A DNA stretch of 64,000 bases from assembly GCA_021323865.1 (NCBI GenBank), contig JAJPKF010000024.1:9207-73206 (forward strand), written 5' to 3'. This document shows positions 16,688-61,140 of this stretch, in pieces. Source of the stretch: Pseudomonadota bacterium. GTDB lineage: Bacteria; Chloroflexota; UBA5177; JAJPKF01. Below the pieces are notes generated by a model. It searched no databases. It was not told the DNA's origin and saw only the letters and a program-made list of their open reading frames with translations. How positions within the stretch are numbered: position 1 is the first letter of the stretch; every line of letters starts with the position of its first letter. Made by a program: the position numbers and the translations under genes.

Positions 16688-17639
16688 GCGCTCCTTCCAG
16701 AAGTTTGAGGAACGTATCCTCTAGTGTCCCGGCCGCCGGTTGTACGGCATAGACGCGAGCGCCGGACTGCACGACTGCGCGCACGATTTCGGGGACCGCG
16801 TCGTCGCCGATACCTCGAACAACGGTCCATCCCTCGCTCTCCTCCACCGGCCCGAACCGGCGTAAGGATTGCCGCACCTCTTCGTCGACGCCTTCTGCCC
16901 GGATGCGGACACCCTTTCCGGCGCCGCGCAGCTCGTCGATGGTGCCGATCGCGATCACCCGACCCTGGTCGACGATCGCGACTCGATCGCACACCAGCTC
17001 GACCTCACCGAGCAGGTGAGAGTTCAGGAAGACGGTCGTGCCTCGGGCCTTTAGGGTGCGGATGATCTCCCGCACATCGTGTCGGCCCACCGGATCGAGC
17101 GCCGACGTCGGCTCGTCGAGAAAGAGAACCTCGGGGTTGCCGACCAGGGCCACCGCCAGTCCCAGCCGCTGCTGCATGCCCTTGGAGTAGGCGCCGACAC
17201 GGTCGTCGGCCCGGCCGGCGATTCCGGCCAGCTCCAGGGCGTGCTCCGCGGCTCGTTCCCGCTGGTCTCGGGGAATGCCGGCAAGGCGGCAGTGGAAACC
17301 CATCACCTCGCGGCCCGTCAGCCAGTCCTGGTAGCGGAACAGCTCGGGCAGGTAGCCGATGCGGGATCGAACGGCCCGATTGCCCAGACGTTCTCCCAGC
17401 ACCCATCCCTCACCGCGAGTGGGTTTGCTCAAGCCAACCAGCAGCTTCACCGCCGTCGTCTTCCCGGCGCCGTTGGGACCGAGAAAGCCGAAAATCTCGC
17501 CCTTGCCCACCGTCATGGTGAGTCCGGCCAGGGCCACGGTTGATCCGAACTCCTTGGCCAGCTCCAGCGTCTGGATGGCGGTCGTTGCCGGACTGTCCGG
17601 CGCGATTTCGGACGCGCTGCGTTCCGCGGTCGCCTGCAT
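16662..17639 (-). CDS. ABC transporter ATP-binding protein (ABC-2 exporter type)
   Basis: Walker [10 protein letters not shown], signature [12 protein letters not shown]-like ([15 protein letters not shown]), Walker [13 protein letters not shown]. The GGAGGAGAG SD precedes the ATG at 17639. The track ORF is extended to 17765. Confidence 0.85.
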
Positions 17640-38599: not shown

Positions 38600-38787
38600 G
38601 CATACATGGCCTTCGGGGCAGGGTGAGACGAGGAATCGCCAATTCCCGATCGGCGGTAGAGCCCGCGAGCGCGTCAGCGCAGGATCTGGTGAGACTCCAG
38701 AGCCGACGGTACAGTCCGGATGGAAGAAGGCACCATGCCCGCTCCCGGCGGGTCCTTCCCCGAAGTGCGTGCACTCGGGGTTTTTCA
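38600..38787 (+). ncRNA. FMN riboswitch (RFN element) with terminator/SD-sequestering expression platform
   Basis: The aptamer (~38608-38730) matches the RFN consensus block by block: CUUCGGGGCAGGGUGA, AUCGGCGGUAGAGCCCGCGAGC, GGAUCUGG...GAGCCGACGGUACAGUCCGGAUGGAAGAAGG. The B. subtilis ribD leader has ...UUCGGGGCAGGGUGAAAUUCCC-ACCGGCGGUA...AGCCCGUGAC...GCCGACAGUGAAAGUCUGGAUGGGAGAAGG for comparison. It is followed by the terminator at 38757-38784. Confidence 0.85.
38757..38784 (+). terminator. intrinsic terminator of FMN riboswitch expression platform
   Basis: CCCCGAAGUGC-gu-GCACUCGGGG (10-bp stem with one bulge) followed by UUUUU. The 3' arm contains the GGGG that would serve as the SD for the TTG at 38788. 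Confidence 0.75.
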
Positions 38788-39630
38788 TTGACCTCACTCT
38801 CATCCTCCGATCAGCTCTCTCCCCTGGCCGCGCGTGGTCGTGAGCGGGGGCACCCGGCCGTCAACCGGCCGCCTGGACGTCGACAGCCTCGGCTGAGGTC
38901 CTGGCACCTGCTGCTCATTCCTTTGTGCATCCTGCTGGGGCTCTGGCTGGTCGCGGCCCACCGGTATGGGCCGGGCATCGTCCCCGGACCAGTCGATGTC
39001 TGGGATCGCTTCGTATCGGCCTGGAAGGAGGGCATCTTCTGGCCGGCAGTGGGAACCACCGCCTTGGAGGCGGCGCTGGGGTGGGGGCTGGGCTGTGTGA
39101 CCGGCCTCTCGCTGGGGTATGCGCTCGGTCGCTGGCGCGCCGTCGAGCTGACCGTTGCCCCTTACGTTTCGGCGAGCCAAGCCATGCCCGTCCTGGCGAT
39201 CGCTCCCCTCTTGGTGATCTGGCTGGGATTTGGCTTGGAGCCCAAGGTCGTGGTGGCCGCGCTCATCGTGCTCTTCCCGGTCATGACCACGACCATGGCG
39301 GGCATTCGCGGGATCGACCGCAGTCTTCGCGACGTGGCCGTGGTGTTCGGAGCCGGCTTCTTCCAGACCATCGTTTTCCTGGAGGCGCCGGTCGCGGCGA
39401 GGAGCATCTTCGCAGGGTTGAAGATCGGCGCCGTGCTCTCCGTGACCGGGGCCGTGGTCGGCGAGTATGTCAGCTCCGATCAGGGCCTGGGCTACCTGGT
39501 CCAGTTCGGGCGATTTCAGTTCGACACGCCGCTGACATTCGTCGCCCTAATTGCGCTCATGCTCCTGGGCGGCTTGGCCTACGCCGCGCTCAGCACTTTA
39601 GAGAGGCTGGTATTGCGATGGACGGAATGA
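38788..39630 (+). CDS. ABC transporter permease, NitT/TauT family (RibX-like riboflavin importer permease)
   Basis: The TM1 plus LPxP-like motif (LLLIPLCILLGLWLVAAHRYGPGIVPGPVDVW) and the EAA-like loop (MTTTMAGIRGIDRSLRDVAVVFGAGFFQ) are both present. The start is uncertain. TTG 38788 is the first in-frame start after the riboswitch terminator. The track ORF 38623.. runs through the riboswitch. Confidence 0.75.
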   Translation: MTSLSSSDQLSPLAARGRERGHPAVNRPPGRRQPRLRSWHLLLIPLCILLGLWLVAAHRYGPGIVPGPVDVWDRFVSAWKEGIFWPAVGTTALEAALGWGLGCVTGLSLGYALGRWRAVELTVAPYVSASQAMPVLAIAPLLVIWLGFGLEPKVVVAALIVLFPVMTTTMAGIRGIDRSLRDVAVVFGAGFFQTIVFLEAPVAARSIFAGLKIGAVLSVTGAVVGEYVSSDQGLGYLVQFGRFQFDTPLTFVALIALMLLGGLAYAALSTLERLVLRWTE

Positions 39631-40625
39631 GGCGACTTGCCATGGTTGGGTCCACGGCGATCATGCTGCTTTTGACGGCGTGTGCCGGTACCGGGCAACC
39701 CGATGCCGCAGCCGTGCACAAGCTGCGCACCGTTCGCGTCTCCATGGGGTACATCCCCAACGTTCAATTTGCCCCCTTCTACGTGGCCCGCAAGCTGGGC
39801 TATTACCGGTCCGCCGGACTGAAGGTCTCCTTCAACTATCAGAACGAGCCGGATGCGCTGACCCTGCTGTCGCGCGGAAGCGTGGACTTCGTTAACTCCG
39901 GCGGCGATGAGGTGCTGACCGCGGGCGCGCATGGGCTGCACGTGCGCTACGTCCTGACCCAGTACTCACGCTTCCCCTCGGCCCTCTTCTTCCTAAAGAG
40001 CCGTCACATTCGCACGGTGTCGGACCTTCACGGAAAGACCGTCGGCATTCCCGCGCCCTACGGGGCGTCCTACGTGGGGCTCCTGGCCCTGTTGGCGGCC
40101 CACCACGTTCCCCAGTCGGCGGTACGGATCGAGACCATCGGCTACACGCAGGTTCAGGCCGTGGCAACCGGCCACGTGGACGCGGCGATGGGGTATGCGC
40201 CGAATGAGCCGGTGCAGCTGCGCTCGGAAGGCAAGGCCGTGGGCGAGTTCGACGTCTATCACTCTGCCAATGTGGCGGGGGCCGGCCTGGCCACCAATGA
40301 CCGGTTGATCGCCCGCCGGCCGGGATTGGTGCGGGCGTTCGTACAGGCCACTCTGCGTGGCTTGCGGTTCACGCTCCGGCATCCCCGGCGCGCGTTCACC
40401 ATCTCGGCCGCCCAAATCCCCGGTCTCCAGAACCCGAAGCTCCAGCGTCAGGTGCTCGATCGGGCCATCGACTTCTGGAAGCCGGTCCGCGTGCCGCTGG
40501 GGCACGTCGACCCGGTCGTGTGGCGGCTCACCGCCCGGTTGCTGTTTCGCTTCCATCAGGTTCAGCGCGCCGTCAAGCACCCCACGCGCTACTACACCAA
40601 CCGGTTTGTGCTTCCCAAGCGCTGA
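39618..40625 (+). CDS. NMT1/THI5-like substrate-binding lipoprotein (RibY-like)
   Basis: Lipobox LLLTACAG and the NMT1-family block VSMGYIPNVQFAPFYVA. Its start overlaps the permease stop. No cognate ATPase gene is in the operon. Confidence 0.8.
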   Translation: MDGMRRLAMVGSTAIMLLLTACAGTGQPDAAAVHKLRTVRVSMGYIPNVQFAPFYVARKLGYYRSAGLKVSFNYQNEPDALTLLSRGSVDFVNSGGDEVLTAGAHGLHVRYVLTQYSRFPSALFFLKSRHIRTVSDLHGKTVGIPAPYGASYVGLLALLAAHHVPQSAVRIETIGYTQVQAVATGHVDAAMGYAPNEPVQLRSEGKAVGEFDVYHSANVAGAGLATNDRLIARRPGLVRAFVQATLRGLRFTLRHPRRAFTISAAQIPGLQNPKLQRQVLDRAIDFWKPVRVPLGHVDPVVWRLTARLLFRFHQVQRAVKHPTRYYTNRFVLPKR

Positions 40626-40645
40626 CGACTTAGCCGCCAAAAAAA

Positions 40646-40682
40646 CGGGGGGAAGGCCGCTGACTTGAGCGCCTTCCCCCCG
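40646..40682 (+). terminator. intrinsic terminator after the RibXY-like operon (12-bp perfect GC-rich stem)
   Basis: The stem cggggggaaggc pairs with gccttccccccg across a 12-nt loop. It is preceded by an A7 run, which gives U7 on the opposite strand. The plus-strand 3' tract is weak (ucucu). Confidence 0.65.
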
Positions 40683-40841
40683 TCTCTACCCGGAAGCTAT
40701 ATGGTTGTGAAGGAAGCCAAAGGTTCCCTGCAGATAGCGTACGCCAAGACTCATTACCGGACGGTAAATAAACCCTAAACTTCCGGTAAATATCAGCGCA
40801 AGATCAGTGCCAGGAGGACCAACACGGAGAGCCTCGACGCC

Positions 40842-42197
40842 GTGATCATCGGCTCCGGTCAGTCCGGGGGGCCTCTGTCGACCGCCCTCGTCGCCGCCGG
40901 GCGTCGCACGGTGCTGATTGAGCGTGACCAGATCGGCGGCACCTGCATCAACGTGGGCTGCACGCCCACCAAGACCATGGTGGCCAGCGCCGACACCGCG
41001 GACACAGTGCGCCGCGCCGGTTCCTACGGCGTCAGGACGGATGGTCCGCATGTCGACATGATGAGCGTACGGGAGCGGAAGCGCCGGATTGTGGAGGAGT
41101 TTCGTTCGGGCAGCCGGGCGGCAATCGAGCGAGGCGGCGTCGAGATTCTCATGGGTGAAGCCTCGTTTACCTCCGAGGGTACCGTCCATGTGCGGCTGCG
41201 TGCCGGAGGGGAGCGGGAGCTGCAGGCGCCCCTGACGGTCATCGACACGGGCACGCGGCCGGCCTCGCCACCCATCGACGGGCTGGAAATCGTGCCGGCC
41301 CTCGATTCCACCACCATCATGGAGCTCGACGAGGTCCCTGAGCATCTACTGGTTTTGGGGGGCGGCTATGTGGGCGTCGAGTTCGGCCAGATGTTCCGTC
41401 GGTTCGGGAGCCGGGTCACCATCGTCCAGACGGGACCGGCACTGCTCGCCCGAGAGGACCCCGACATCGCGGAAGCGGTTCGCGACATTCTGGCCGAGGA
41501 CAGCATCGAGGTGCTTCTCAGGGCCCGCACCACTCGCGTCTCAGGTTCGGCCGGAGCGGTAACTCTCACCCTCGACATGGACGGCGTCCGGCGGGAGGTT
41601 CAGGGATCGCACCTGCTCCTGGCCACTGGCCGCCGGCCCCAGGTCGAGGCGCTGAACCTGGAAGTGCGCGGCATCGCCACCGACGGGAAGGGCTTCATTC
41701 GTGTCGACGAGCGCCTGCAGACCACCGCGCCAGGCGTCTACGCCACAGGCGACGTCACCGGTGGGCCGGCCTTTACGCACATCTCATACGACGACTTCCG
41801 GATTCTGCGCGCGAATCTCATCGAGGGAGGAGATCGGACCACGCGGGACCGTCTGGTGCCCTACACGGTCTTCATTGATCCACAGCTGGGCCGGGTGGGG
41901 TTATCCGAGACGGAGGCGCGCCAGCGCGGCATCGACGTGAAGGTGGCCCGCCTGGAGATGAGTCACGTCGCGCGGGCCCTGGAGACCGGTGAGACGCGCG
42001 GGCTGCTCAAGGCAGTTGTGGACGCCGGAACCGGCCGCATCCTCGGGTGTGCCGCTCTCGGGATGGAGGGCGGCGAGATCATGGCGATGTTTGAGATCGC
42101 GATGCTTGGGAAGCTACACTACACGACCTTGCGGGACGGCATCTTCGCGCATCCCACGCTGGCCGAGAGTCTCAACAACCTGTTTTCGCCCATCTAG
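40842..42197 (+). CDS. class I pyridine nucleotide-disulfide oxidoreductase (RclA / dihydrolipoyl dehydrogenase / MerA-core-like)
   Basis: FAD motif IIGSGQSGG, redox-active disulfide GGTCINVGCTPTK, NAD motif VLGGGYVGVEFG, and C-terminal FAHPTLAES. GTG 40842 has GGAGAG 10 nt upstream. Confidence 0.85.
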   Translation: MIIGSGQSGGPLSTALVAAGRRTVLIERDQIGGTCINVGCTPTKTMVASADTADTVRRAGSYGVRTDGPHVDMMSVRERKRRIVEEFRSGSRAAIERGGVEILMGEASFTSEGTVHVRLRAGGERELQAPLTVIDTGTRPASPPIDGLEIVPALDSTTIMELDEVPEHLLVLGGGYVGVEFGQMFRRFGSRVTIVQTGPALLAREDPDIAEAVRDILAEDSIEVLLRARTTRVSGSAGAVTLTLDMDGVRREVQGSHLLLATGRRPQVEALNLEVRGIATDGKGFIRVDERLQTTAPGVYATGDVTGGPAFTHISYDDFRILRANLIEGGDRTTRDRLVPYTVFIDPQLGRVGLSETEARQRGIDVKVARLEMSHVARALETGETRGLLKAVVDAGTGRILGCAALGMEGGEIMAMFEIAMLGKLHYTTLRDGIFAHPTLAESLNNLFSPI

Positions 42198-60865: not shown

Positions 60866-61140
60866 GGTGATCGTGCTAGGCGGGGAGCTAGCGGTGCCCT
60901 GTACCCGCAATCCGCTATAGCGGGGCGTAATTCCGCGCTTGAGGCCTGGCTCAGCCAACACTGTTCGGTTTGTTCGACGTTGAAGACCGGGTTCTGCGCG
61001 GCGGAGCCCCGTGAACCCCGTCAGGTCCGGAAGGAAGCAGCGGTAAGCGGCCAGCTCCGGGTGACGCAGAGGAGCCTGGTCTGAGCCGGCATGCTGGATA
61101 AGCTGAGTGGACCAGTGTCGAGAGTGCGGTGCACGATCAC
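60866..61140 (+). ncRNA. ffs: signal recognition particle RNA, large Bacillus-type (with Alu domain)
   Basis: The domain IV core CCCGUCAGGUCCGGAAGGAAGCAGCGG is present. The Alu-domain region GAUCGUGCUAGGCGGGGAGCUAGCGGUGCCCUGUACCCGCAAUCCGCUAUAGCGGGGC aligns almost base-for-base with B. subtilis scRNA. The 5'/3' closing helix is GGUGAUCGUGC...GCACGAUCACC. The protein ORF 60770-61084 covering it is spurious. Confidence 0.8.

Follow-up and report, generated by a model that had tools for sequence, protein, structure and literature searches.

Positions 38600–40625 of the 64,000-nucleotide stretch of contig JAJPKF010000024.1 analyzed here (64 kb, called the window below; positions are counted from its first letter) hold a leader followed by two genes, all on the plus strand. 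The leader contains a flavin mononucleotide (FMN) riboswitch aptamer, and the genes encode the permease and the substrate-binding lipoprotein of an ATP-binding cassette (ABC) importer, which we refer to as ribX and ribY. An earlier note, drawn up from the letters of this DNA, had described the same interval, whose limits are accurate, as an FMN riboswitch controlling a putative riboflavin importer of the RibXY type that lacks its own ATPase.

The aptamer, or RFN element, spans 38605–38735 (+). A scan of the whole window against Rfam 15 matched this region to RF00050, the covariance model that the note had suggested as a check, over model positions 1–138 of 138; the match scores 94.1 bits, with the gathering score at 66.2 (E = 2.2e-20). 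Only two matches in the window exceed their gathering scores, RF00050 and a large signal recognition particle (SRP) RNA, and the aptamer is thus the sole riboswitch of the window. The core of helix P1 consists of 38609–38614 paired with 38726–38731, and in the cmscan alignment the only non-canonical pairs are the two outermost ones of P1. The three RFN sequence blocks on which the earlier assignment was based are all present, with GGGGCAGGGTGA at 38615, CGGCGGTAGAGCCCGCGA at 38651, and GCCGACGGTACAGTCCGGATGGAAGAAGG at 38702. The core nucleotides of the junctions and of helices P1–P6 are intact and, in an alignment with 35 related aptamers, the window aptamer agrees with the consensus at all 60 of the 60 columns that are ≥94% conserved. 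The FMN riboswitch is thus confirmed as real and lies far beyond chance. The thiamine pyrophosphate (TPP; RF00059) and guanidine-I (ykkC) riboswitches, which had been considered and set aside on first reading, are ruled out, as neither has an Rfam match in the window.

The first gene, ribX (38788–39630, +), encodes a 280-residue ABC importer permease of the NitT/TauT (COG0600) type with a BPD_transp_1 domain (PF00528, E = 9e-24). The nearest NCBIfam models are SsuC, SaoP, and TauC, all with scores far under their cut-offs. Its reading frame contains no ATG, and TTG codons at 38788 and 38923 are its sole canonical starts. The latter is the start of the Joint Genome Institute (JGI) gene call (235 residues; contig Ga0070739_10000146 of metagenome 3300005532, a 154-kb sequence that includes the window) and can be ruled out, because it removes the first half of the conserved first transmembrane segment. 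TTG 38788, by contrast, sits 39 residues ahead of this segment, close to the spacing in the closest relative (locus L003), where an ATG lies 40 residues ahead. As the only canonical start that keeps the segment and as one whose spacing matches that of the relative, TTG 38788 was taken as the start of ribX.

The second gene, ribY (39627–40625, +), encodes an NMT1/THI5-like (COG0715) substrate-binding lipoprotein (PF09084, E = 6e-42), with the signal peptide MRRLAMVGSTAIMLLLTA|C and the lipobox LLTA|C as read from the sequence. The two genes are therefore of the families named in the earlier note. The ATG of ribY at 39627 overlaps the stop codon of ribX as ATGA (39627–39630), which suggests that the genes may be translationally coupled; alternative ribY starts lie at 39618 and 39642. 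The nearest RibY homologs are 55–67% identical and come mostly from metagenome-assembled genomes (MAGs) of Chloroflexota. They include a Chloroflexota MAG protein at 67% and the JGI protein P0008 at 64%, the latter annotated as ‘putative riboflavin transport system substrate-binding protein.’ A sequence search of the PDB for a solved RibY returned none; the best matches are THI5-type enzymes and ThiY, the closest solved structure (3ix1, E = 3e-12).

The association of riboswitch and genes is not confined to the window. With a profile built from 20 RibY homologs, 80 genome loci were recovered, almost all of them in Chloroflexota; their usual order is riboswitch, ribX, ribY. Linkage was assessed by Rfam scan at 40 loci and, using an nhmmer profile made from the aptamers found there, at 29 further loci with enough upstream sequence. 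Of the 40, 35 have an FMN riboswitch above the Rfam threshold 5′ on the coding strand, and four of the remaining five have sub-threshold FMN matches of 41–64 bits in the right place. The family-specific profile detected the element in 28 of the further 29.

The name RibXY dates from 2013, when it was given to a ThiXYZ-like system that has no ATPase and is under the control of an FMN riboswitch (PMC3766115). Gutiérrez-Preciado et al. 2015 (PMC4418817) subsequently showed that the ribXY operon of Chloroflexus aurantiacus rescues a ribB mutant of Escherichia coli when riboflavin is low, and the same work extended the system to Actinobacteria and Thermobaculum and used the FMN riboswitch leader as the criterion separating RibXY orthologs from thiamine, methionine, and guanidine paralogs. 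For RibY, the published orthology criterion is >38% identity over ≥80% coverage to the C. aurantiacus protein (PMC4418817). The riboswitch and the gene pair of the window match the published definition of RibXY, so that the assignment to riboflavin or FMN uptake made in the earlier note agrees with the literature, in which it already existed. The note also remarked that such loci are often misannotated as sulfonate or nitrate transporters; names of the SsuABC/TauABC kind are given to homologs by generic annotation pipelines. Judging from the sequence, we consider it about 85% probable that the locus is a two-gene ribXY operon that imports riboflavin or a related flavin and is switched off by FMN through its leader riboswitch. 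In such a system, the lipid-anchored RibY would capture the flavin and hand it over to a RibX dimer.

Several observations weigh against this assignment or parts of it. Identity to the experimentally tested C. aurantiacus RibY is estimated through Chloroflexales proxies only: at ~90% coverage, RibY is 43% identical to the protein of a Chloroflexaceae MAG, 39% to that of Chloroflexales ZM16-3, and 38% to that of Oscillochloris trichoides. A homolog search seeded with the Chloroflexaceae RibY did not return the C. aurantiacus prototype among its best 120 matches, where only Oscillochloris and MAGs were found. At one close relative with a ribX–ribY pair and no ATPase (L005; RibY 55% identical), neither Rfam at E ≤ 0.1 nor the nhmmer profile of the family detected an FMN aptamer. 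The metagenome gene caller did not choose TTG 38788 as the start of ribX, and a simple promoter scan found no sigma-70-like promoter 5′ of the aptamer. The folding energy of the whole leader is ordinary relative to shuffled sequences (z = −0.5), as would be expected for a switch, and so lends the assignment no support. Finally, no cognate ATPase partner of RibX was found within the window, and the coupling-loop motif of RibX in this clade is divergent, reading AARS rather than AALP; both points are taken up below.

Between the aptamer and ribX, the leader carries what appears to be an expression platform based on mutually exclusive structures coupled to P1, as predicted by computed folds. An intrinsic terminator at 38758–38785 (+) consists of a 9-bp hairpin with one bulge (38758–38780; −13.5 kcal/mol by itself) followed by UUUUU (38781–38785). 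A simple terminator scan did not pick it up, probably due to the bulge in the stem. The switching segment CCUUCCCCGAAGUGC (38754–38768, +) is predicted to become the terminator 5′ arm when FMN is bound. In the predicted FMN-free state it pairs instead with GCCUUCGGGGCAGG (38609–38622, +), which comprises the 5′ strand of P1 and junction J1/2 and serves as the antiterminator partner. A small GC-rich hairpin in the interval between aptamer and terminator (38737–38753, +) is present in all predicted folds. Enforcing P1 yields the aptamer together with the terminator at −74.7 kcal/mol, whereas the unconstrained minimum free energy structure of 38600–38800 (−80.6 kcal/mol) contains the helix 38609–38622/38754–38768 and no terminator. 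The predicted difference of ~6 kcal/mol between the two folds would be within reach of ligand binding.

A similar design is seen in the related leaders. Complementarity between the 5′ arm of the terminator, which has the consensus (G)CCCCGAAGG, and the first 25 nucleotides of the aptamer exceeds that of shuffled sequences in 24 of 28 related leaders; for the 3′ strand of P1, this is so in only one of the 28. A crude scan detected a hairpin and U-run 3′ of the aptamer in 33 of 35 leaders. Because antiterminator-type complementarity and a hairpin with U-run are both this frequent, the predictions point to transcription attenuation as the main mode of the family. In the window, binding of FMN would close P1, freeing CCCCGAAG (38758–38765) to form the terminator hairpin ahead of the U5 tract, and transcription would end 2–7 nucleotides 5′ of the TTG start. 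When FMN is scarce, pairing of 38609–38622 with 38754–38768 would form the antiterminator and block the hairpin, allowing ribX and ribY to be made.

The position of the terminator raises the possibility of a second level of control. The 3′ arm of the hairpin contains GGGG (38777–38780, +), read from the sequence as a possible ribX Shine–Dalgarno sequence 7 nucleotides 5′ of the TTG start, and the order downstream is UUUUU (38781–38785), CA, and the TTG (UUG in the RNA) codon. The geometry described in the earlier note, in which the terminator abuts and base-pairs with the likely Shine–Dalgarno sequence, is therefore present. The dual transcriptional and translational control deduced from it is plausible and depends on TTG 38788 being the start and on GGGG being the Shine–Dalgarno sequence. 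In that case, any read-through mRNA would keep its GGGG ribosome-binding site buried in the terminator hairpin. The hairpin, U-tract, and start codon are laid out in a like manner in four other loci (L027, L042, L043, and L054), where C and AUG follow the U-tract.

The same geometry could arise if attenuation acted on transcription alone, with the pairing of GGGG a by-product that has no separate effect on translation, and we give this explanation somewhat less than an even chance. The 3′ arm of the terminator must mimic CUUCGGGG (38612–38619) and for this reason carries GGGG; complementarity of the 5′ arm to this part of the aptamer (P1, 5′ strand, and J1/2) in 24 of the 28 leaders means that the 3′ arm has to repeat the segment in G-rich form. 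Moreover, the U-tract lies well 5′ of the start codon in most related leaders, and in L003 the terminator ends 31 nucleotides 5′ of the ATG and its hairpin has no SD-like sequence, which indicates that the overlap is not a conserved requirement. On the other hand, in the window and in the four loci with a similar layout, the start codon follows the U-tract within 1–2 nucleotides, and with that spacing the hairpin, if kept in a read-through transcript, must cover the ribosome-binding region. The odds that ribX control has a real translational component are thus, on these structural predictions, roughly even. The FMN riboswitch of E. coli ribB offers a precedent, as it acts at both levels according to two studies cited in PMC11571811 (Pedrolli et al. 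2015; Hollands et al. 2012). It differs from the arrangement proposed here in that termination is Rho-dependent and the ribosome-binding site is sequestered in a separate helix, whereas in the window one intrinsic terminator hairpin would do both jobs.

Repression by FMN would not by itself require that the cargo be riboflavin. The transporter might instead carry a breakdown product or precursor of flavins, for example lumichrome, or a thiamine pyrimidine as in the homologous ThiXYZ. The family is versatile, in that homologs elsewhere lie behind TPP, ykkC, or T-box elements and probably carry other substrates (PMC4418817). The thiamine-precursor binder ThiY is the closest solved structure, and the PDB offers no RibY for a comparison of pocket residues. 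Nevertheless, the identity to ThiY is low, and wherever a leader element could be detected at a related locus (67 loci), it is an FMN and not a TPP element, 5′ on the coding strand. The tested member of the family transports riboflavin, and its RibY is described as a flavin binder where PMC4418817 cites Rodionova et al. 2015, who are also credited there with a ribZ ATPase in some Chloroflexi. A different cargo is therefore improbable, and flavin uptake remains the preferred reading.

The statement in the earlier note that the locus has no ATPase gene is correct and can be widened: a six-frame motif scan found no ATPase of the NitT/TauT type in the operon or in the whole window. The scan located three ABC ATPase domains, near 17480 (−), 45122 (−), and 63797 (+). 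The first adjoins an ABC-2 permease, and the second forms a fusion with the membrane domain of an exporter. Whereas the ribZ-like ATPases encoded at related loci are 50–65% identical to one another, the three domains are only 29–39% identical to them. Their low identity, together with the exporter membrane domains that two of them have of their own, rules out all three as partners of RibX.

Most of the family encodes its own ATPase. A NitT/TauT-type ATPase with the Walker A motif GPSGCGKSTLLR lies directly 3′ of ribY in 30 of the 39 evaluable loci of a first set and 27 of the 36 of a second, or 57 of 75 (~76%) overall. The minority without it includes the nearest relatives of the window (L003, L004, and L005), a Chloroflexaceae MAG (L010), and Herpetosiphon (L073). 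The coupling loop of RibX in the clade of the window, shared with L003 and L005, reads ...FGAG..Q....LE.P.AARS.FAG..., as opposed to the usual ...A..WQ.F..LE.PAALP.L.GG.... Despite this divergence, an EAA-type loop is still recognizable. Its retention is consistent with the docking of an ATPase encoded elsewhere, and the altered motif is compatible with a change of partner. Transport would most likely draw its energy from an ABC ATPase whose gene lies in another part of the genome.

A more far-reaching interpretation is that the clade, which combines the missing ATPase gene, the AARS loop, and one relative without a riboswitch, has become an ATPase-independent, binding-protein-dependent flavin facilitator or uses a moonlighting ATPase of an unrelated ABC importer and, separately, that one hairpin acting as both terminator and Shine–Dalgarno sequestor recurs in the family. 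We regard it as very improbable. Also very improbable is the explanation that RibXY of this clade needs no ATPase at all and works as a binding-protein-dependent facilitator: no cognate gene lies in the operon or the 64 kb around it, the loop motif is divergent, and the C. aurantiacus ribXY genes were sufficient for function in E. coli (PMC4418817), but the dedicated ATPase right after ribY in 57 of the 75 loci marks the family as ancestrally ATP-driven, the window RibX retains its EAA-like loop, the portion of the genome covered is 64 kb only, and SsuB/TauB-type ATPases of E. coli could have stood in during the complementation.

The operon is flanked on its 5′ side by a gene of the AHSA1/SRPBCC family on the opposite strand and on its 3′ side (40842–42197) by a gene for a flavin adenine dinucleotide (FAD)-dependent pyridine nucleotide-disulfide oxidoreductase, which resembles RclA, MerA, and lipoamide dehydrogenase and falls under all equivalog cut-offs. 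A flavoprotein gene thus adjoins the flavin importer, but a hairpin and a 216-nucleotide spacer lie between them. The hairpin (40644–40690) is strong and is preceded on the plus strand by A7, so that on the minus strand it is followed by U7, and it was matched by the terminator scan on the minus strand. No minus-strand gene is found to its right before 42204. The minus-strand fold of 40620–40845 gives z = −3.5, and the segment 40626–40841, 3′ of ribY, has no Rfam family and no similarity among the 80 related loci. The hairpin probably delimits the operon at its 3′ end, or it terminates transcription in both directions or on the minus strand; the region as a whole (40620–40845) could act as a two-way terminator or encode a small RNA on the minus strand. 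The SRP RNA mentioned above, of the large bacterial type, lies at 60871–61136 (RF01854, 175 bits).

The related loci also show some variation of their own. L081, like L005, has no detectable FMN aptamer. In L004 (2733–2874) and L017 (2626–2752), no ribX is found within 3 kb and the FMN element lies directly 5′ of ribY, a layout resembling the monocistronic ribY of Deinococci (PMC4418817). Four Anaerolineae loci contain a homologous open reading frame (ORF) between ribX and ribY of the FMN-riboswitch operon (L020:1649–2986, L039:1587–2951, L044:1556–2866, and L055:1572–2984). The inserted ORFs are 43–53% identical, ~440 residues long, with 8–10 hydrophobic segments, and have no Pfam family above cut-off and only a weak GT87-like match; their products appear to be an uncharacterized membrane protein under the same control as flavin uptake. 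These genomes show a clustering of vitamin-responsive leaders, with a cobalamin riboswitch just 3′ of the ribXY operon in L053 (4114–4343) and, in L034, a TPP riboswitch (613–740, −) that is situated 5′ of the FMN element on the opposite strand.

For annotation, the value of the locus is that the riboswitch turns the generic NitT/TauT calls on this contig into a specific assignment to flavin uptake and that the start of ribX is corrected. It adds one ATPase-less RibXY to the known set, and the comparison contributes the share of loci with a dedicated ATPase (~76%) and the pairing of the terminator 5′ arm with the 5′ strand of P1 and J1/2 of the aptamer.

The system can be placed among known transporters by comparison with the literature, Sun et al. 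included. Among more distant relatives, the sulfonate and taurine importers SsuABC and TauABC belong to the same NitT/TauT superfamily but have no FMN riboswitch, and they are ruled out by NCBIfam scores far below the respective cut-offs (SsuC, 90.6 versus 347; SsuA_fam, 81.1 versus 163.5; TauC, 61.2 versus 342; taurine binding protein, 32.2 versus 304). ThiXYZ shares a homologous permease and, as seen in ThiY (PDB 3ix1), the NMT1-like binding protein fold. However, it is regulated by a TPP riboswitch and includes an ATPase, whereas the leader of the window is FMN-specific with no match to RF00059. With no TPP leader and a ThiY match of only E = 3e-12, the locus does not class as ThiXYZ.

The closer counterparts are flavin transporters. 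The RibXYZ-type operons of Anaerolineae and other Chloroflexota agree with the window in their riboswitch, in the identity and order of the two genes, and in terminator/antiterminator design, and differ in carrying the dedicated ATPase gene directly 3′ of ribY that the window lacks. The other counterpart is RibXY of C. aurantiacus (Caur_0816-0817) and other Chloroflexi, which shares the FMN riboswitch, ribX (COG0600), ribY (COG0715), and the absence of an ATPase from the operon; the source of the window is likewise Chloroflexota-like. Relative to the Chloroflexaceae systems, the window represents a different, uncultured lineage, with RibY ~38–43% identical, and relative to C. aurantiacus it has a divergent RibX coupling loop and a start codon that abuts the terminator U-tract. 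Every element of the interpretation in the earlier note is already contained in the RibXY papers of 2013–2015, and that reading is correct, with dual control no more than plausible, but not new: the locus is an ordinary new example of a system already described and experimentally validated.

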